From Treponemataceae bacterium (lineage in GTDB: Bacteria > Spirochaetota > Spirochaetia > Treponematales > Rectinemataceae), in NCBI GenBank assembly GCA_963678065.2, contig CAXXVZ010000005.1, forward strand, positions 1,152,001 through 1,216,000: 64,000 bases of DNA, read 5' to 3'. Both the position numbers and the translations under genes were made by a program. The notes under the pieces are model-generated. The model saw nothing but the letters and a program-made list of their open reading frames with translations. It made no database searches and had not been told where the DNA came from. Positions within the stretch are counted from its first letter, which is position 1. Each line of letters starts with the position of its first letter. Positions 1 through 8,517 of this stretch are shown here, in pieces.

Positions 1-198
1 GGCTCCACACGCCGCGAGTCCTTCAGTAAACACATTCCCGGTATGAAGCACTCCATCGAGCGCCATGAGGGTAAACAGTCCTCCCAGCGAAAGAATGTCG
101 GGAATTTTGAAGCTTTTGATGTCGGTGACCGTACACGGAAGGGCAAATGCGAGAAACACTGTCCCCCGTATGAGGTGGCTATACTCATTCACTGGCAT
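1..198 (-). CDS. A24-family (prepilin) peptidase, 5' part; runs off the window start
   Basis: Manual translation MPVNEYSHLIRGTVFLAFALPCTVTDIKSFKIPDILSLGGLFTLMAL...: hydrophobic helix followed by D-x4-KIPD, typical of A24 aspartic peptidases. Alternative in-frame ATG at 207. Confidence 0.6.
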   Translation of the reverse strand, partial: MPVNEYSHLIRGTVFLAFALPCTVTDIKSFKIPDILSLGGLFTLMALDGVLHTGNVFTEGLAACGA

Positions 199-382
199 GT
201 GAAGCATATTCTATAGCGTCTCCGTACAAAGTCAAGGATTTATATCGAGCAAAATGCCGTTTCGACGAATGTGAAAAAATAATTTTTCTTTCCTTGACGA
301 CTGTCTGGTATGTGAGTTTATACTCAATAATAATTATTCTAATCAAGCACCCCCATCGAGAGAGTCTCTAAGGAGAGAAGGT

Positions 383-3300
383 ATGAACAAGCCCGCGAGG
401 AAGAAGCTGAGAGCCTGCATCGTGCTCGCCTGCGCTGCCATGGGCGCATGGGCGCAGACACGGGCGCCGGAAGCGGCGACTGCCGGAGGCGCGTACCGGA
501 TCGAGCGGGGAACGGACGGGACGGACTCGTACACGCCGCTCGTGAAGGGACGACACACGTTCAGCTTCGGCTCGGGGGCGGGACACATCGAGTTCGATTC
601 GGACGCGGTGGACCTGTCGGTGGCGACGGTCAGGCAGGCAGGGAAGTCGGGGAAGTCCGTGGCGGCGAGCAGTTTTGCGAAGACGGGGCAGGGACTGGGG
701 AACCGAGGACTGGCGATGACGGTGAGGCAGGTAGGAGGACCGGCGGCAGGGCGGAACGGACAGATCGACGGGATGGGGATCACGGGTCCGGTGTGGGAGT
801 TTGGGCCTGAGAAGCTGCGGTTCACGAAGCCTGCGAGGCTGACGCTGCCGTACAGCTGTCCAGAGGGGATGCCGGAGAGCCAGATCCAGGTGTTCTGGTA
901 CAATGAAAGCGTGAAGCGGTGGGAAGTTGTGCCGAAGCTGAGCCAGGACATGGTTACGCACACCATTACGGCGACTATAGACCACTTCAGCAGCTATACG
1001 ACGGGTATATCGTCGAACCGAAAGGATGAAGCGGGAACGCTTGCGGGACTCGGAGGATCGAGGAGTGAGCGGGTGGACCCGTACTTCGGGACGCTCCTCA
1101 TGGACAGCACAGAGGTGGACATCGCCGCCCGAGGGATCGGCTTCGGCCTTCAATCGAGTTTCAACTCGGATTATTTGTACTCGCAGTATGTGTCGACGCT
1201 CAGCGGAAGTTTCACGAGTTCGGGCAACCTCTGTGTGAGCCCGAATAACAGCTCATACATATATGCATCTGGGTGGAGTTACCTTCTCCCGTTCTGCAAC
1301 TATGGAACCTATGGTGTGCTGACCCTGACCGTTCCCGGCGGGTCGGTGTTCGACCTCACATCTGTATTGAACCAGTTCGGGACGATGACCGCGAACGCGG
1401 AAACGACGATCGACCGTTATGTGGTCACCAAATCGGGAACGACGCTGACGGTGCGCATCCCCGAGACAGGGTTCTCGGGCCGGTTCACGATCTTCGAACA
1501 TGCGTGGTCGGATAGATCGTATCCGCCGGGAGACGATCCAGTTATCACCTATTATTACGAGGTCAAGGCGACCTCTGCGCGGCTCTTCTATCCGGACGGA
1601 CGAGAGGCAGAGTTCACGGGATCGGGGTATGTGTCGAAGATCTGGGATCCGTCCCTGGTGAACGGCGTCACGTTCAGCTACTCGGGGACGACGCTGACGC
1701 AGCTTGACCACACGGATGGTCGGTCGGTGAAGATCTATTCGTATGCGGGATCAAGCGGGCAGACACGAATAGTGTATATCCTGTCGTCGAGCACGGGAAG
1801 GACGACGCTGAATCCGGGGGATCTGTTCCTGCAGCGGAAGACACTCGACTCGTCAGGTAGAGTGATTTCAATCGACGAACTGGGAACGGTGCCGATCACA
1901 CAGACCATCACATCGTTCACGCCGAGCCTGTCGAACGAGTCGACGTACAGCACGGTGCTGCGCTCGACAACATATGGATACTCTGTAGGATTAGGCGGGG
2001 TTGACTATATTGAGATGCAATCGCCGGGGAAAGGGTACTCGAAATATACGTTCGGTGTGTCGTTCCATCCGTATGGGTATTGCACCTATTCCAATCTGTA
2101 CACCTACAACGATAATGATCCTCCTGGGGAGCCACATTGGATCACGGTCGGGGCAAACTACCGCTATTATCAAAATAAACCCAAGGTGTGCACTGTTATA
2201 CGGAAAGAACAGTCCGGTTCGACAGAGTATGCAAAGGATTATTATACCTACGAATCCGGAGGCGGAAAGACGGCATTCACGTCATCAGACTGGGAGAGTT
2301 CAACCACGACATGGCCTGATCCATGGGATATCTACCCATCGAAGACGACGATCGCGACAGTCCGTGTGGCCGGGAGTGAGACGGCACTCGTCAAAAAAGA
2401 ACTATTTTTTTCCCATACAGGGGATCTCCCAAATAAGACATATTTGGGCGTGGGAACGGATATCACGTACAAGAACTCAAGTGACTTCTATACGAAAACA
2501 GGGCGCTCATTCACCCCGACTTCCTCGTTACTTGGGAGCTATCGCACGCAGTACGAATATGTCTACATCGGGGATTCCGGTACATCGCGGTACACGCTGA
2601 CGCATTCGTACGACAGCGATGGGCGGCGGACGCGGACGCAGAACAGCCTTGCGGGAAGTACATACACGGCCTACCTCAATACGCTTACGTCTGACACCAC
2701 CTTCTGGGACAATCCGTACACATCGACGAACAACTTCACGGACAACCTGGTGAAAGGCTTCGGGATCATAGCGGGAGAGGCGGTCGAGCAGGCTTCAGGA
2801 TCGTGCTTCAAGACATACCGGAAATACCAATCAGACCTGAAGCTGCTCGAGACGAAAGATCTTGAATACTATGCGAACGGGACGGCCAACACCAAGACGG
2901 TGACGAGTGCGTGGAACAGCTCGACGAATACGCTTGCGAGCGTGACGGAGCCCTGGGGGGACTCAAGTACGACGACGACCTCGTTCAGCTACGGGAGCGG
3001 GTGGAAGAGCTCGTTCGTGACGACACAGACGAAGGAGCTGGGGGCGAACATCGGAACGAATGATCGTGTCGTCACCACGTATGATTATGACCTTGCGGGA
3101 CGACGGCTGCAGGAAGGGACGGTCGTCACGGATTCACAGGGGACCGCAATCGACGGGACGAAGTATCCCGCAGCGACGAGTAAGCTCGAGTGTGATGGAC
3201 TGGGACGAGTGACGAAGAAGTCACGGGTGGTGAGCGGGACAGAGACGACACTCGGGCGGTACGAGTATGGGCAGGACACGAATGGACTGTGGTCGACGGC

Positions 3301-6001
3301 GACGGACGGGAAAGGATTCCGCACCGAATCGCGGTACGATTTCTACGGACGGCTTCTGCAGGAGATACCGTACAAGCCGGATACGGCGAGCAGGGACGCG
3401 ACATACACGGGGTCAGGAGAGGTGGCGATCGGGAAGGTGGTGAAGACGTGGGATATGGCGATGCCATCGCTCGTGAAGAGCGAGACGGTGTATCTGGACG
3501 CAGGTCTTTCGACGCAACTTGTGACGAGCTACAGCTACGATGTGCTGGGGCGGCCTGTGCAGGTGCAGTCGGGGCCGAGCTCCGGCTCACAGGTGACGAT
3601 GGTGGCGACGGCCTACGACGACAGCCAGAACACGGTGACGGTGGACAGGTACCGGGATGGGTCGACGTACACGAGGACGAGGACGCAGAAAGACTGGCTG
3701 GGACGGACAAGCTCGGAGATCCAGTGGGACGGGACGAACGGGGGAGGGAACAGCCGGACGACGTCGTACGCTTATAATTTTACGGGACAGGTGACGTCGA
3801 AGACGATGCCGAACGGGGAAGCGTACACGTACGTGTACACGCGTGCGGGACGGCTGCAGACGGAAAGCTACCCTATGGGGCGGGGGAGTAAGTCGAACAC
3901 GTACTACCCGGACGGACGGGTGCGTGTCGCGACGGAGCTGAACGGCGACACAGTGAGTTACACGTACAATAAGGCGGGGATGGAGCGGACGAGGACGACA
4001 GCGTCGACGAGGAGCCCGCAGCCCGCGACGCTCGTAGTGACAAGCGCGTACTGCCAGTATGGTCCGGCCACGGTGGCTGAGCAGCGAGGGGGTGAATCGA
4101 CGCCGAGCCAGACGGTGGCGTGGGAATACGGGGTGAACGGGATACCGGCCAAAGAGAGTCGGACCGTCCCGACTCAGGCGGGGTCGAAGACGGCGACGGT
4201 AGTGAGGACCTACGACCTGGCGAACAATCCGGCGAGTGTGACGGTGACGGGGTTTGGTGGGTACGCGAAGGCCGTGAACTATGCGACACCGTACTTCGGC
4301 GGAACAGGATATGGCGGGAACACGAACACGCTGTCGGTGTCGGACAGTTCGTCGAACCTGCTAGGGCGGACAGGACTGTCGTTCTGGGGAGGACGGACGG
4401 CGGTATCGTACGGGACGTCGGGGGGAACGGCGGTGTACGGGTACGACACGTGGCTGCGAATGAGTTCGGTGGACAATCCGGGGAGCCTGTGCGACGGGAG
4501 CTACACGTACGATCGGACGGGGAACGTGACGGGGCGGGACGGGGTGAGCTACGGGTACGACGGGATGAACCGCCTGTCGACGGGAGGGGGAACAAGCTAC
4601 GGCTACGACGCGATCGGGAACCTGACACAGTCGACGGGGACAGATCCGGCGAGCTATGGCTATGCGCCGGTGTCGGGAGTGAACAGCATGCTCCTACGGA
4701 ACATCACGCATCCGAGTTCGCAAGCCGTGACGGACGACGCGAGTCGGGGGTGGGTGACGGGTGTGCAGAACCGATACGCGAGCCTTACGTGGGACGTGTA
4801 CGGGCGGCTGGAGGGTATGGGAGACCTGGCGAGGAACGCAGGTGGAACGCAGACGGACAGCTATCGGTACTACCCGGACGGGCTGCGGTATCGGAAAGAT
4901 GAGACGTCGACGACGGGAGCGGTGACGACGACGCTGTACGTGTACGAGGGGAACGAGATACTGCTGAAGGAGAGGATGGAGGGGAGCACGTGGAAGACGG
5001 CGCAGGTGAACGTGCGGCTTGGGGGTATGGAAGTCGGACGGTACGTGAAGGACTACGTGGGGAACACGGAGCGGCTAGAGTACGTATGGCAGGACAACCT
5101 GGGATCGCGGAGGGCAGTCACGGACACGGCGGGGACGGTGAAGGCGAAGATCGACTATGCGGTGTGGGGTGGCTCGACGGTGACGAACTACAACGGGTAC
5201 GACGGGAGTCAGGATGTGTCGTACACGGGGAAGGAGCGAGACGCGACGGGACTGTACTACTTCAATGCGCGGTACTATGATTGTGTGGCGGGGAGGTTCT
5301 ACTCTGAGGACCCGGTCAGGGATGGGGGCAACTGGTTCGTCTACTGTGGCAACAATCCGCTCTCGGCCACGGATCCCACCGGATTACGAGAAGTTGAAGA
5401 GACAGTCGATAGTGGGGTCTATGAACAGAAGGATCGAAGAGAAGCACCGGAAAGAAATTCAGGGTCATCTTTATTTGGCAAGATAAAAAGCTATTTACCT
5501 GGAGACTATTGGGCATCGAAGGGGTATGACACATGGTCTTCGGGTGGAGGCTTTTGGAAAGGTCTAGGCTATTTTGGACTAGCCGCCTGTAATGATGCAA
5601 CATTTTTGATGTTAGGTCAGATAGGGGGTGTAGCACTAAACAAGCTAGGCGGACTATTTATAAAAAGTGCCGCTGGGGAGGGGGCAATAGAGCTGCCTAC
5701 TGCTCTTCAGGGAGGTGCGGCAACAACTGACGTTTATTTTGGGACAAGACATGGCCAACGTGTATACGCTGGAATCACCAATGATCTTGCACGTCGGCAA
5801 GGTGAACATGAAAGCCGATTTATCCTTGAGCGCATAACTCAATCACCGGTGACTAGAGGTGAAGCGAGGGCTATTGAGCAGTCTTTGATCAGCCAGAATC
5901 CGGGCTTCGAGAATGTAATAAATAGTATTAGCCCGAAGCATTCCTGGTATCAGCAAGCTGTTGATTGGGGTAGTGCTTGGCTGAAAGCCAATGGGTATTA
6001 A
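383..6001 (+). CDS. Rhs/YD-repeat polymorphic toxin: signal peptide, ZU5-like domain, YD repeats, RHS core, C-terminal GIY-YIG(URI)-like nuclease
   Basis: 1872 aa; AAGGAG RBS; N-terminus ...CIVLACAAMGAWA-Q; FGPEKLRFTKPARLTLPY...DHFSSY; many YD-x-x-GR repeats; core GLYYFNARYYD...GRFYSEDP...YCGNNPLSATDPTG; tail VYFG...VYAGIT..L.RR..EH...ARAIEQ.LI...N.INSI. Confidence 0.93.
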   Translation: MNKPARKKLRACIVLACAAMGAWAQTRAPEAATAGGAYRIERGTDGTDSYTPLVKGRHTFSFGSGAGHIEFDSDAVDLSVATVRQAGKSGKSVAASSFAKTGQGLGNRGLAMTVRQVGGPAAGRNGQIDGMGITGPVWEFGPEKLRFTKPARLTLPYSCPEGMPESQIQVFWYNESVKRWEVVPKLSQDMVTHTITATIDHFSSYTTGISSNRKDEAGTLAGLGGSRSERVDPYFGTLLMDSTEVDIAARGIGFGLQSSFNSDYLYSQYVSTLSGSFTSSGNLCVSPNNSSYIYASGWSYLLPFCNYGTYGVLTLTVPGGSVFDLTSVLNQFGTMTANAETTIDRYVVTKSGTTLTVRIPETGFSGRFTIFEHAWSDRSYPPGDDPVITYYYEVKATSARLFYPDGREAEFTGSGYVSKIWDPSLVNGVTFSYSGTTLTQLDHTDGRSVKIYSYAGSSGQTRIVYILSSSTGRTTLNPGDLFLQRKTLDSSGRVISIDELGTVPITQTITSFTPSLSNESTYSTVLRSTTYGYSVGLGGVDYIEMQSPGKGYSKYTFGVSFHPYGYCTYSNLYTYNDNDPPGEPHWITVGANYRYYQNKPKVCTVIRKEQSGSTEYAKDYYTYESGGGKTAFTSSDWESSTTTWPDPWDIYPSKTTIATVRVAGSETALVKKELFFSHTGDLPNKTYLGVGTDITYKNSSDFYTKTGRSFTPTSSLLGSYRTQYEYVYIGDSGTSRYTLTHSYDSDGRRTRTQNSLAGSTYTAYLNTLTSDTTFWDNPYTSTNNFTDNLVKGFGIIAGEAVEQASGSCFKTYRKYQSDLKLLETKDLEYYANGTANTKTVTSAWNSSTNTLASVTEPWGDSSTTTTSFSYGSGWKSSFVTTQTKELGANIGTNDRVVTTYDYDLAGRRLQEGTVVTDSQGTAIDGTKYPAATSKLECDGLGRVTKKSRVVSGTETTLGRYEYGQDTNGLWSTATDGKGFRTESRYDFYGRLLQEIPYKPDTASRDATYTGSGEVAIGKVVKTWDMAMPSLVKSETVYLDAGLSTQLVTSYSYDVLGRPVQVQSGPSSGSQVTMVATAYDDSQNTVTVDRYRDGSTYTRTRTQKDWLGRTSSEIQWDGTNGGGNSRTTSYAYNFTGQVTSKTMPNGEAYTYVYTRAGRLQTESYPMGRGSKSNTYYPDGRVRVATELNGDTVSYTYNKAGMERTRTTASTRSPQPATLVVTSAYCQYGPATVAEQRGGESTPSQTVAWEYGVNGIPAKESRTVPTQAGSKTATVVRTYDLANNPASVTVTGFGGYAKAVNYATPYFGGTGYGGNTNTLSVSDSSSNLLGRTGLSFWGGRTAVSYGTSGGTAVYGYDTWLRMSSVDNPGSLCDGSYTYDRTGNVTGRDGVSYGYDGMNRLSTGGGTSYGYDAIGNLTQSTGTDPASYGYAPVSGVNSMLLRNITHPSSQAVTDDASRGWVTGVQNRYASLTWDVYGRLEGMGDLARNAGGTQTDSYRYYPDGLRYRKDETSTTGAVTTTLYVYEGNEILLKERMEGSTWKTAQVNVRLGGMEVGRYVKDYVGNTERLEYVWQDNLGSRRAVTDTAGTVKAKIDYAVWGGSTVTNYNGYDGSQDVSYTGKERDATGLYYFNARYYDCVAGRFYSEDPVRDGGNWFVYCGNNPLSATDPTGLREVEETVDSGVYEQKDRREAPERNSGSSLFGKIKSYLPGDYWASKGYDTWSSGGGFWKGLGYFGLAACNDATFLMLGQIGGVALNKLGGLFIKSAAGEGAIELPTALQGGAATTDVYFGTRHGQRVYAGITNDLARRQGEHESRFILERITQSPVTRGEARAIEQSLISQNPGFENVINSISPKHSWYQQAVDWGSAWLKANGY

Positions 6002-6002
6002 T

Positions 6003-6470
6003 ATGAACTTGAGAATTTTGAAAGGTACTAATCGGTCACCTGCTATTGGCGACTGCTTCACTATGATGCCGCCTGATGGTCAGTTTTTATTTGGCCGGGT
6101 TATTGAAATAGATGCCAACCCACTCGGATTAGGTGGTGGTATTCTAATCTACATTTACAATGGGCGATCCGAATCAAAACAAGTGCTACCAGATATGACG
6201 GTAAGCAATCTTTTGTTGCCTCCGATTATCACCAATAAGCAGCCTTGGATAAAAGGCTATTTTGAATTCTTGGGAAACGTTTCTTTAGGCCCTAAAGACA
6301 GGCTCGCTGTTCATTGTTTCAAAGATTCCCGCGGGTGGTATTTTAATGAGAGAGGAACCCGTTTGCAGGTTAAAACTGAACCAGTTGGAGAATGGGGGCT
6401 ACATAGTTATCGCACGATTGATGACGCTATATCAAATGCCCTTGGTATTCCACAGTCGCAAGAAAAATGA
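6003..6470 (+). CDS. Cognate immunity protein, Imm26-like
   Basis: ATG 1 nt after the Rhs stop; AT-rich like the toxin tip; motifs GDCF...DGQFLFGRVI...IYIY...LLLPPIITN..W.KGYF resemble Imm26. Confidence 0.75.
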   Translation: MNLRILKGTNRSPAIGDCFTMMPPDGQFLFGRVIEIDANPLGLGGGILIYIYNGRSESKQVLPDMTVSNLLLPPIITNKQPWIKGYFEFLGNVSLGPKDRLAVHCFKDSRGWYFNERGTRLQVKTEPVGEWGLHSYRTIDDAISNALGIPQSQEK

Positions 6471-6530
6471 GCCTAATGTATAGTTCAAGCTGACAACCCT
6501 ACGGGTTGCAGCTTAACTAGGTTATTAGGC
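6471..6530 (+). repeat. attC-type integron recombination site (60 bp) with non-canonical AAT/ATT core
   Basis: GCCTAAT-GTATA-GTTCAAGC-TGAC-AACCCTACGGGTTG-CA-GCTTAAC-TAGGTT-ATTAGGC: R''/5 nt/L''...L'/6 nt/R' layout with unpaired C and A on the top strand (G and T on the bottom strand); starts right after the immunity stop codon. Confidence 0.8.
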
Positions 6531-6763
6531 TAATCGAAGAACGTTAGCCGCCTTAGCCTTGTGCTGGGACGGCTTTTGTGCATCCGAGGCAAGAAAAAAT
6601 CCGAGTTATGCTGCGAGCCTGTTTCAGGGCGCGAATGGCAAAAAGAGCTGCCGCGGAGCATCGCGTCTTCGACGCGCAGCCCCGTGGCTAGGGGAAGACA
6701 CCCATCTGAATGCTTGACTCCATGCTTATGAATTTCGAGTATCGAGCCGAAGGGGAAGGCAGA

Positions 6764-6881
6764 CCCGATTGCGCCTAATGCGTAGGGTGGCGAAGTCCGC
6801 GGAAGCGGATTTGGGGGAGCGCCACTCCACGCGCAGCGTGAGGTGGCACGACCCGCCAACCGAGAATTAGGCGCAGTCGGG
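6764..6881 (-). repeat. Second, longer attC-like branched hairpin with the same GCCTAAT...ATTAGGC ends
   Basis: Outer inverted repeat CCCGATTGCGCCTAAT (6764-6779) / ATTAGGCGCAGTCGGG (6866-6881), 15/16 match; inner stem GGTGGCG/CGCCAACC with one bulge; two internal hairpins. Confidence 0.55.
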
Positions 6882-6993
6882 CGACTGTGTTTGATGGTGT
6901 TAAGGGGTTTTGATAGTTTCCGCTGTGACGTAGACCCCGCAGCGTGAGTCACGAGCGGAGAGACCCTCTGCATGGGGGAATATGTACAGCACG

Positions 6994-7251
6994 CTATTTA
7001 TACGCGTCTTTGCGATCACGAACTCGAATTATTTCAATAACCAAACGCCGATCGACGATGTTGTAGACGACACAATACTCGCCGACAATGCGGTAGGTGT
7101 TTTCGGTATCAGTGAGCTTTCGGACGCCATTGGGACGCGGCTCCGAGGCCAAGCTTTCCACGGCGAGGATGATCTTCGAGATGATCGGCTTGGGAAGCTT
7201 TTTGAGCTTCCTGGCGGCCGACGACTTCCACTCGATGTTATACGAGGCCAC
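6994..7251 (-). CDS. RelE/ParE-family type II toxin, possibly attenuated
   Basis: GTG start overlapping the antitoxin stop; YNIEWKSSA...LASEPRPNGVRKL...YRIVGEYCVVY...IEIIRVRDRKDAY. Confidence 0.8.
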   Translation of the reverse strand: MASYNIEWKSSAARKLKKLPKPIISKIILAVESLASEPRPNGVRKLTDTENTYRIVGEYCVVYNIVDRRLVIEIIRVRDRKDAYK

Positions 7252-7435
7252 CGGCTTTGAGCCCCGCCAGCAAATCCGTGTGAGACACGGTCTCTTCGGC
7301 GCGGCGCTCGGCAACGGCCGCGAGGTCGGAGAGGTCCTCGAGGAGTTCGGTATAGGCATCGAGGGGAAGTATGACGGCGGTTTTCTGGCCCTTGGCGTCG
7401 GTGATGTATTGGGGATTGCTGATGGCAGCATCCAT
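7238..7435 (-). CDS. Type II antitoxin upstream of the RelE-like toxin
   Basis: 65 aa, QYITDAKGQKTAVILPLDAYTELLEDLSDLAAVAERRAEE; AGGAGG RBS; overlaps toxin start. Confidence 0.8.
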   Translation of the reverse strand: MDAAISNPQYITDAKGQKTAVILPLDAYTELLEDLSDLAAVAERRAEETVSHTDLLAGLKAGGLV

Positions 7436-7454
7436 ATTGCCCTCCTATAAAACA

Positions 7455-7470
7455 TCAATCCTACGATTGA
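7455..7470. promoter_or_regulatory. Palindrome upstream of the TA operon, candidate autorepression operator
   Basis: TCAATC-CTAC-GATTGA, 20 bp upstream of the antitoxin ATG. Confidence 0.4.
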
Positions 7471-7507
7471 CTCCAGATCAATAGTTTTTGGCTCGGCAAT
7501 GCCGAGA

Positions 7508-8359
7508 TTACGTACTCAGTTCGGTGGCCGTAGTTCGCATGGATTTCGATACGCTCTCCAGCTTCCTGTCGGTCATTAATCCAACATTGAACTCTTCTCC
7601 CCTCGTCAACATGGACCACACAATCTTCGACAGCTTCCGTGCCGTCGCAATAATCGTTTTCCCTGTGCCCTTCATCCTCTTCATCGACTCATACCCTTCC
7701 ATCAGTCGCCACGATGGAGTTCTTCGACTTCGCCTCATCCCTATGACCACCTGCACAAGCGCAGTCCTCAATTCTTCCGATCCACGCTTCGTTATCCTTC
7801 CGTAGTGTTCCGTCTGATTCGAACACTGCACCCACGGCGCTAATCCAGCATACGATGCGTACTTCTTATAACTCGAAAATCGCCCTATCTCGTCCATATA
7901 CGCCCGGATCGCCCATGCCGTTATCGACCCACATCCAGGTATCGTCTCTAGAAGTTCAACCATCTTGTCATTCACCATGAGCTTCTCGATCTCAACCTCG
8001 ATCGTCTTGACGTTCTCCGTAAGCCGATCTATCGTCTCAAACAGCGGTTGGACTACGAGTCCGCTTCCCGCTCCTGCGAGGTGTCCAGTATCGTCTGGCG
8101 CCCTCACGAGGGTGCTCCGGACTTTCAATAGCCGCCTGAGCTGCTCGCTCGTTTCTGAACACAGGTTCGCTTCGGGCAGGATATCCTTCGACAAAAACTC
8201 TGCGATCGTCGCGGCGTCATGGGTATCCGTCTTCTTCACGGATTCAGTGATCACCTTGAACTTCATCGTGTTGATCACCACCACCGGATACCCCTTCATC
8301 TCCACTCGATGCTTGAAGTACCTCGTGTTCCCCGTCGATTCCCCTTGCGTTTGTCTCAT
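7508..8359 (-). pseudogene. IS110-family transposase remnant, N-terminally truncated with probable internal deletion
   Basis: ESTGNTRYF, KKTDTHDAATIA, LLETIPGCGSITA, SYAGLAP...S...GRITKRGSEELRTAL, IATARKL motifs; first RuvC aspartate (GxD) missing; coiled-coil region short. Confidence 0.8.
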
Positions 8360-8431
8360 ACAAACGTCTCATAGTGAAAATCGGGACACGTGCGCCGGTT
8401 GTCCGGTAGCAGTGTATTTTACTGTCTCATA
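8353..8431. repeat. Three GTCTCATA direct repeats next to the tRNA 3' end
   Basis: GTCTCATA at 8353-8360, 8366-8373 and 8424-8431. Confidence 0.7.
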
Positions 8432-8443
8432 AAGAATTAATTC

Positions 8444-8517
8444 TGGGCCCTGCTGGACTTGAACCAGCGACCGACGGATTATGAGTCCGCAGCTCTAACC
8501 AACTGAGCTAAGGGCCC
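8444..8517 (-). tRNA. tRNA-Ile2 (anticodon CAT, lysidine type); CCA not encoded
   Basis: GGGCCCTTAGCTCAGTTGGTTAGAGCTGCGGACT-CAT-AATCCGTCGGTCGCTGGTTCAAGTCCAGCAGGGCCCA folds as a cloverleaf; resembles Ile2 rather than Met tRNAs. Confidence 0.88.

Follow-up and report, generated by a model that had tools for sequence, protein, structure and literature searches.

An attC-derived hairpin family with an AAT/ATT core, linked to Rhs toxin-immunity modules in spirochaete genomes and metagenomes

Introduction

Why does a hairpin of the integron type stand directly behind an Rhs toxin-immunity pair, and why does it carry a core that attC sites are held not to have? The question is raised by a stretch of 64,000 nucleotides from a Treponemataceae bacterium (assembly GCA_963678065.2, contig CAXXVZ010000005.1, positions 1,152,001 to 1,216,000 of the forward strand; hereafter the window), where a 60-nt hairpin built like an attC site follows an Rhs gene and its Imm26 immunity gene and reads AAT/ATT in place of the AAC/GTT core. 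We find that this hairpin is derived from attC and is a member of a natural family of sites that carry a substitution at the first core base in both arms.

The triplet AAC is described as the sole stretch conserved among all attC sites (PMC5027507), and GTT as kept in all integrons characterised so far, where it is thought to serve cassette exchange (PMC2811028). A literature search, with subscription papers mostly outside its reach and with term checks of the available parts of PMC8352920, PMC4889954, PMC5737381, PMC8632094, PMC3482391 and bioRxiv 10.1101/2025.05.03.651265, returned no paper on a natural AAT/ATT attC or on an attC behind Rhs genes; attC collections such as that of PMC8352920 may hold unremarked examples.

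Structure of the hairpin and its module

The locus is an Rhs polymorphic toxin locus, with an Rhs core that ends in a DPxG junction, a variable tip and an adjacent immunity gene. The full-length Rhs protein of 1872 aa (383..6001, plus strand; TIGR03696) has an N-terminus resembling a signal peptide, and its DPTG junction and toxin tip occupy 5372..6001 (plus strand). From its sequence the tip is likely a URI-type nuclease; its GIY-YIG match is weak (E 0.004), and Tox-URI1 is listed as a partner of Imm26 (PMC3482391). The Imm26 gene follows at 6003..6470 (plus strand; PF15428, E 2e-12; 123 homologues) and closes with the stop codon TGA at 6468-6470. The tip differs between Rhs copies and between relatives, so the toxin-immunity segment is not the invariant one that would have spoken against the earlier note on this DNA. 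A DNA search of 60 relatives returned no orthologous locus and one homologue of the hairpin.

The hairpin itself (6471..6530, plus strand) starts at the first base after the Imm26 stop. It opens with an R'' box, GCCTAAT (6471-6477), and a 5-nt spacer, followed by the L'' box GTTCAAGC (6483-6490), in which C 6486 is unpaired; a second extrahelical base, A 6493, precedes a 6-bp stem with a 3-nt loop. The returning arm consists of the L' box GCTTAAC (6511-6517), a 6-nt spacer and the R' box ATTAGGC (6524-6530), with the crossover predicted between 6524 and 6525. The paired 7-bp R''/R' boxes, the paired L''/L' boxes, the unpaired 5/6-nt central spacer and the extrahelical bases on the L'' arm are those of a classical attC site, whereas the core is AAT/ATT and not the conserved AAC/GTT. 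Folded as DNA with its flanks, the bottom strand reaches -19.1 kcal/mol (z -4.94), a value equalled by none of 200 shuffles, and the strict attC anatomy occurs three times in the real genome versus 0, 0, 0, 1 and 0 times in five locally shuffled genomes. The earlier note had described this anatomy, its position against the immunity stop and the compensated AAT/ATT change on both arms, and these proved exact when checked on the sequence; its statement that the window holds no integrase agrees with a profile search, which found no tyrosine recombinase match there. It had missed a second AAT/ATT element, in the opposite orientation, at 6773-6872.

Since the hairpin starts at or near the stop codon, it could also be an attC-derived stem kept to protect or end the immunity transcript, that is, an RNA 3'-end hairpin. 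A second hairpin often faces the site from a convergent gene, terminator-like stems follow at several loci, the window copy folds about equally well on the two strands (bottom -16.7, top -17.1, in itself a neutral detail), and there is no wobble bias. However, the hairpin has no U-tract and received no terminator call: no intrinsic terminator (GC-rich stem plus T run) was found in 6400-7100, and the terminator-only alternative that the earlier note had named does not correspond to a consensus terminator. Nor would a role in RNA explain why the unpaired spacers stay at 5/6 nt and why two bases bulge where they do in attC, and an Rfam search with the hairpin gave chance-level matches only, with no family near threshold. 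We therefore regard the RNA explanation as improbable, and return to the hairpin as a recombination site.

A natural family of sites

In all, 38 distinct AAT/ATT sites were collected from spirochaete genomes and metagenome contigs (two share one body), in line with the further sites that the earlier note had proposed to look for in this genome and its relatives; by the kinship table, those in genomes fall among spirochaetes. A tight pattern run over species-representative genomes gave two matches, both behind Rhs tip and immunity genes, and a DNA search added one in a relative. The wider pattern matched 35 metagenome loci, of which 25 were kept after six poor folders and four duplicates had been removed, and pattern and model searches of genomes supplied further sites. 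A loose pattern over 401 genomes of the phylum gave matches mostly due to chance, with three real new sites among them. Viral contigs held no AAT matches and at least 80 AAC loci; plasmids gave one match, by chance.

Across 29 aligned sites, 94% of cells are paired and two-sided changes occur in 14 of 22 pairs, in the R box, the L box and the stem. None of 500 shuffles scored as high, in a test that is inflated by kinship among the sites and in which the core, the first spacer and part of the L box are fixed by the search pattern; slid controls were 22-46% paired. The second extrahelical base, whose position the pattern left free, is A in 38/38 sites, and the right spacer measures 6 nt in 34/38 of them versus 7/32 canonical sites. 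The bottom strand folds better in 27/38 sites (mean -1.1 kcal/mol). Could the window copy nonetheless be a hairpin formed by chance, or one attC that has drifted? Many chance matches do arise when the pattern is loosened, and 6/35 metagenome matches fold poorly; yet a z of -4.9 and the existence of 38 distinct homologues, which covary and have their gene context in common, leave this explanation next to no probability, and the family itself refutes it.

The kinship with attC was put to the test: in complete genomes of the same order, a covariance model built solely from AAT sites matches dozens of canonical attC in arrays adjoining intI. When the bodies are compared without their R boxes, 34/37 are nearest another ATT site, and L027, L040 and L044 lie nearer canonical sites. 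On the tree, whose resolution for 60-nt sites is poor, the starred branches force at least two core changes. At L027, an AAT/ATT attC stands on the first cassette of an ordinary integron (1272-2254) in which the next cassette is canonical and the attI region is apparently deleted.

Several further hairpins were observed around the family. L150:883-948 (minus strand) is family-like with an AAG/CTT core, and L110:1501-1574 (plus strand) is family-like with an A/T-rich box reading AAA/TTT. A 55-nt AAT/ATT subfamily with CGCTAAT boxes (L034, L037, L040) stands behind toxin-antitoxin or IS genes and not behind Rhs. At ten loci (L026, L031, L032, L043, L047, L058, L128, L147, L148, L091) a second attC-like hairpin, often decayed, stands head to head with the AAT site, about 10-180 nt off and sometimes behind a convergent toxin-antitoxin gene. 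One locus, L022, carries the label of a Borreliella species; its Rhs module is common to environmental spirochaetes, and the label may be wrong.

Association with Rhs tips and immunity genes

Of the sites, 19 are testable, having at least 1450 nt of upstream sequence; in 12 of these the preceding 3 kb include an Rhs core/tip junction, or in 14 when longer copies of two loci are used. The corresponding figures for canonical short sites are 1/24 in genome loci, the one being a sibling in the same genomic island, and 0/104 in viral contigs, in control sets drawn from different sources and not matched to the test set. The suggestion that AAT/ATT hairpins follow Rhs C-terminal tips and immunity genes is thus borne out (12/19 vs 1/24 and 0/104). 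Among the remaining five sites, L046 has RHS repeats just downstream, L089 has an Rhs core about 5.5 kb upstream, and L034 and L044 have no Rhs link. Tips and immunity genes vary by locus and include TNT/Imm63, SHH, GHH/SUKH, RNase/barstar, GH-E/ankyrin, Imm26 and Imm40.

Reassortment at the core

Hairpins and their flanks are reassorted at the core. Bodies at least 90% identical stand between unrelated upstream genes and unrelated flanks in 18 of 19 such pairs, while six pairs share the first 30 nt of the downstream flank although their bodies are only 56-67% identical. Within the island, the non-coding spacer that follows the window hairpin (6531..6772, no strand) recurs behind the toxin-immunity modules in four further whole or partial copies, and it is joined exactly at A|TT either to a 100-nt hairpin (three copies) or to a 24-nt motif that forms no hairpin (two copies).

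Contig data gave a weaker signal. Run X7 contains one contig, from a relative, that matches the window as far as 5376, within the DPTG codons, and again from 6525, the base directly past the predicted cut; this joint is a single contig with 28 letters on its short side, of a class prone to error. In run X6 a different tip follows the junction (9 letters). A joint in X2 (5377-6643) was left out of the count, as it agrees with the second Rhs locus of the genome itself. Excision or inversion joints at the hairpin were absent from eight runs of contigs, a kind of data that drops rare variants.

The left boundary of the modules is blurred, paralogues diverging at differing places around NP..DPxG, as expected from the homologous recombination proposed for Rhs orphans (PMC3967940). 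An ATT core hidden in the DPxG|L codons was considered as a left crossover and rejected: tips start mostly with GGA, GGG or GGT|TTR, often with G and not A, and never with TTAGGC, and divergence between paralogues starts up to about 20 nt earlier. GGR|TTR was found in 7/7 cases with a site versus 4/12 without, numbers too few and too confounded to be used.

Integrase, attI and the effect of the core change

The genome carries a complete integron on contig C3, with an IntI of 450 bits, nine attC that are all AAC/GTT, and an attI core that is GTT; its array keeps the cassette chain rule in 6/6 steps over the first seven attC. An IntI homologue, which the earlier note had proposed to look for, is therefore present, while the ATT-core attI sought alongside it gave way to a GTT core. 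The hairpin is not part of a complete integron: the IntI lies on C3, with its GTT attI, and not at the hairpin. As an observation on that attI (98303-98319), an inverse core, GCCTAAT, lies four bases before the GTT core. IntI scores above the family cut-off in 7/11 site-bearing genomes versus 45/151 of a class sample (Fisher p 0.04, with kin that are not independent).

An ATT-type integron platform was looked for and rejected, none standing beside intI in genomes G000, G380, G053, G354 and G684; in four site-bearing genomes other than the window's own, 6/6 attC beside IntI are AAC/GTT. In G503 and G451, where contigs end, the search detected no attC next to intI.

What would the changed core do? 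In IntI1 assays, an attC-ATT crossed with wild-type attI1 recombines at 3.1e-3 of the normal rate, about 300-fold lower, and with attI1-ATT at the normal rate (PMC2811028, Table 4). If class 1 rules hold here, the site would be cut off from the cell's own attI and arrays and compatible with other ATT sites. By this analogy the hairpin is likely an integrase recombination site that ignores the ordinary GTT cassettes of the cell, and it likely gives toxin-antidote pairs a recombination channel of their own through which they are swapped. We give about an even chance to the fuller proposal that the right end of toxin-immunity modules is set by an orthogonal family of IntI attC sites and the left end by homologous recombination within the Rhs core.

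The same assays could be read in the opposite direction, as locked cassette ends: modules or immunity genes would have gained an attC in an integron, and a G-to-A core change would have been selected because it stops the host IntI from moving them, the sites no longer recombining. The roughly 300-fold loss caused by a mismatch at the first core base (PMC2811028) would suit such a lock, as would the solitary position of the sites far from intI, the GTT core of the host attI, the repeated origin of the change (L027, L040 and L044 nearer canonical sites; at least two changes forced on the tree), and the existence of an AAG/CTT site and of decayed copies. A dead site, however, need not keep paired arms, an extrahelical A in 38/38 copies and covarying L boxes; the presence of nearly identical bodies next to unrelated genes suggests that sites have moved recently; and any damaging change would do for a lock, yet 38 sites share one core versus one CTT site. 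Locked ends thus appear unlikely, though less so than the RNA hairpin, and the orthogonal site family remains the reading that we carry forward.

Outside the window, an array of 177 kb on contig C5 (754730-932710) holds at least 157 co-oriented AAC/GTT hairpin repeats of about 140 nt. It keeps the chain rule in 134/156 steps. The tyrosine recombinase at its end carries HARP and SAM_4 domains and does not reach the IntI cut-off, which makes the array an integron-like super-array with a non-IntI enzyme.

The tRNA-anchored island

The module lies at the right end of a 42.5-kb island (contig C5, 1117930-1160485; window 1-8485). Downstream of the spacer stands the 100-nt AAT/ATT element (6773..6872, minus strand), which has 5/6-nt spacers on the minus strand, is inverted relative to the 60-nt site, has an L box without an extrahelical base, and occurs in two more copies in the island. 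A ParE toxin gene and a small antitoxin gene (6994..7435, minus strand) point towards it, a segment that is swapped for other DNA in one relative's contig. They are followed by an apparently shortened IS110-family transposase gene (7508..8359, minus strand) and by a tRNA with a CAT anticodon (8444..8517, minus strand), whose 42-bp end recurs 42.5 kb away and so bounds the island.

Between two divergent Rhs genes, the island contains a type II secretion cluster (secretin, GspF, GspG, prepilin peptidase). The second Rhs copy (Rhs-B), on the opposite strand about 10 kb before the window starts, is 91% identical up to the tip; its own tip is of the AHH type and is paired with Imm11, and three orphan tip/immunity pairs come after it. 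The signal-peptide-like N-termini of both Rhs proteins and the secretion cluster between them suggest Rhs export by the type II system. Two of the three orphan pairs end in a canonical AAC/GTT attC, one of which is a clear homologue of the 60-nt hairpin (58 bits, model R1) and is followed by the same spacer. The conserved 24-nt motif ends exactly at A|TT where the shared spacer starts (L009:1383-1407 and 3117-3141); its two copies occur only in this island, and it is a candidate attI-like or secondary ATT site.

The unit that precedes those two orphan tips (L009:4550-18600) raises a further explanation. It comprises an HTH gene, a small gene, an ATPase-like gene and two XerC/D-like recombinases; its repeats are 97-99% identical, with only tip, immunity gene and hairpin changed; similar recombinase or integrase genes precede the modules in L023, L038 and L046. 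The hairpin could accordingly be the site of these paired recombinases, and not of IntI, in the manner of rAID arrays. Against this, a single-query search found a close homologue in 1/10 other site-bearing genomes (46%) and weak ones in two, the proteins score far below the IntI cut-off, the window module has no such unit, and the extrahelical bases that the sites keep are IntI contacts (PMC5027507). A Xer-like site is in our judgement slightly more improbable than even the RNA hairpin.

Discussion

The favoured reading, IntI acting on an orthogonal attC family at the right end of modules, has to be weighed against a number of results. Besides the unmatched control sets and the single-contig joint of run X7 described above, the AAC/GTT cores on two island siblings show that an Rhs pair can be followed by an unchanged core, and the first Rhs-B pair has no short hairpin behind it at all. 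The searches turned up neither an ATT-core attI nor an ATT array linked to an integrase, and among the 11 site-bearing genomes one holds an IntI fragment and three, which are drafts, hold no IntI. A classical cassette would carry at its 5' end a TTRRRY remainder complementary to its own R'', here TTAGGC; this scar is absent from the start of the tip and immunity genes. No upstream same-strand ATT partner delimits the module; the only upstream occurrences of TTAGGC, at 1991 and 6285, fall within genes. With self-complementary R boxes in 32/38 sites, the chain rule cannot be read from them. G.T wobbles number 6 vs 6, showing none of the bottom-strand bias of mobile-integron attC (PMC5027507). 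All of these points weigh against it.

Because the core and the cassette scar depart from the classical pattern and the site is otherwise attC-like, we describe it as a new attC variant, neither a classical attC nor a cassette. The proposal in the earlier note that the immunity gene, or toxin tip plus immunity, is a mobile cassette of a variant integron-like system therefore survives in part: the attC-derived, Rhs-tied family stands, and the variant platform and the cassette scar are not supported.

In the mechanism that we envisage, an IntI encoded elsewhere in the genome would fold and cut the bottom strand at A|TT, and the cut site would be joined to another ATT site, so that incoming DNA with a tip and immunity gene docks behind the resident pair. 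The new tip would then be fused to the delivery protein by homologous recombination at the conserved NP..DPxG end of the Rhs core. Exchange that is site-specific on the right and homologous on the left would make the right end sharp and the left blurred, and would place toxin modules outside the host's cassette arrays. Rather short of an even chance, and put forward tentatively, is the broader idea of a second, insulated integron channel, in which ATT attC sites and an ordinary integrase shuffle Rhs warhead-immunity modules apart from the GTT pool. Such a channel, if true, would be a natural counterpart of engineered orthogonal sites and a site-specific route for the exchange of toxin tips.

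AAC/GTT is held to be shared by all attC for the sake of cassette exchange (PMC5027507, PMC2811028), and a natural family with a changed core makes that idea testable; it also shows what a lineage does on leaving the common cassette pool. Cassette surveys that depend on the GTT core are likely to miss AAT/ATT sites.

Among known systems, the short attC sites of spirochaete chromosomal integrons (PMC8352920; PMC5027507) are closest, sharing R and L boxes, spacers of 5 and 5-6 nt, two extrahelical bases, the position at the stop codon and sequence kinship. The family departs from them in its AAT/ATT core, its mostly solitary sites, self-complementary R boxes, 6-nt right spacer and tie to Rhs modules. 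The same first-base change on both arms was engineered in attCaadA7-ATT and attI1-ATT (Frumerie et al., PMC2811028); that pair was built in the laboratory, whereas here no natural ATT attI was found and the family of attC sites is natural. Like CALIN (PMC4889954), the sites are of attC type and lie away from intI, often with an IntI elsewhere in the genome. CALIN, however, consist of at least two co-oriented attC without intI, while in the window a single forward site is accompanied by an inverted element, and only L091 has two co-oriented ATT sites.

The rAID arrays of Bacteroidales (bioRxiv 10.1101/2025.05.03.651265) likewise combine interbacterial defence genes, conserved intergenic motifs and a tyrosine recombinase. 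They are co-oriented orphan immunity genes behind one recombinase; the window module has no recombinase, its kind of pair includes a toxin tip, and the family shows true attC kinship and belongs to another phylum. Finally, the displacement of Rhs C-termini and orphan modules (PMC3967940) resembles the present locus in the variable tip and immunity gene behind a conserved core, the blurred DPxG junction and the downstream orphan tips. That model, in the parts of the source available, invokes homologous recombination only, with no site-specific element at the downstream end. To the uptake of Rhs tips, usually ascribed to homologous recombination alone, the AAT/ATT family would add a concrete downstream boundary.

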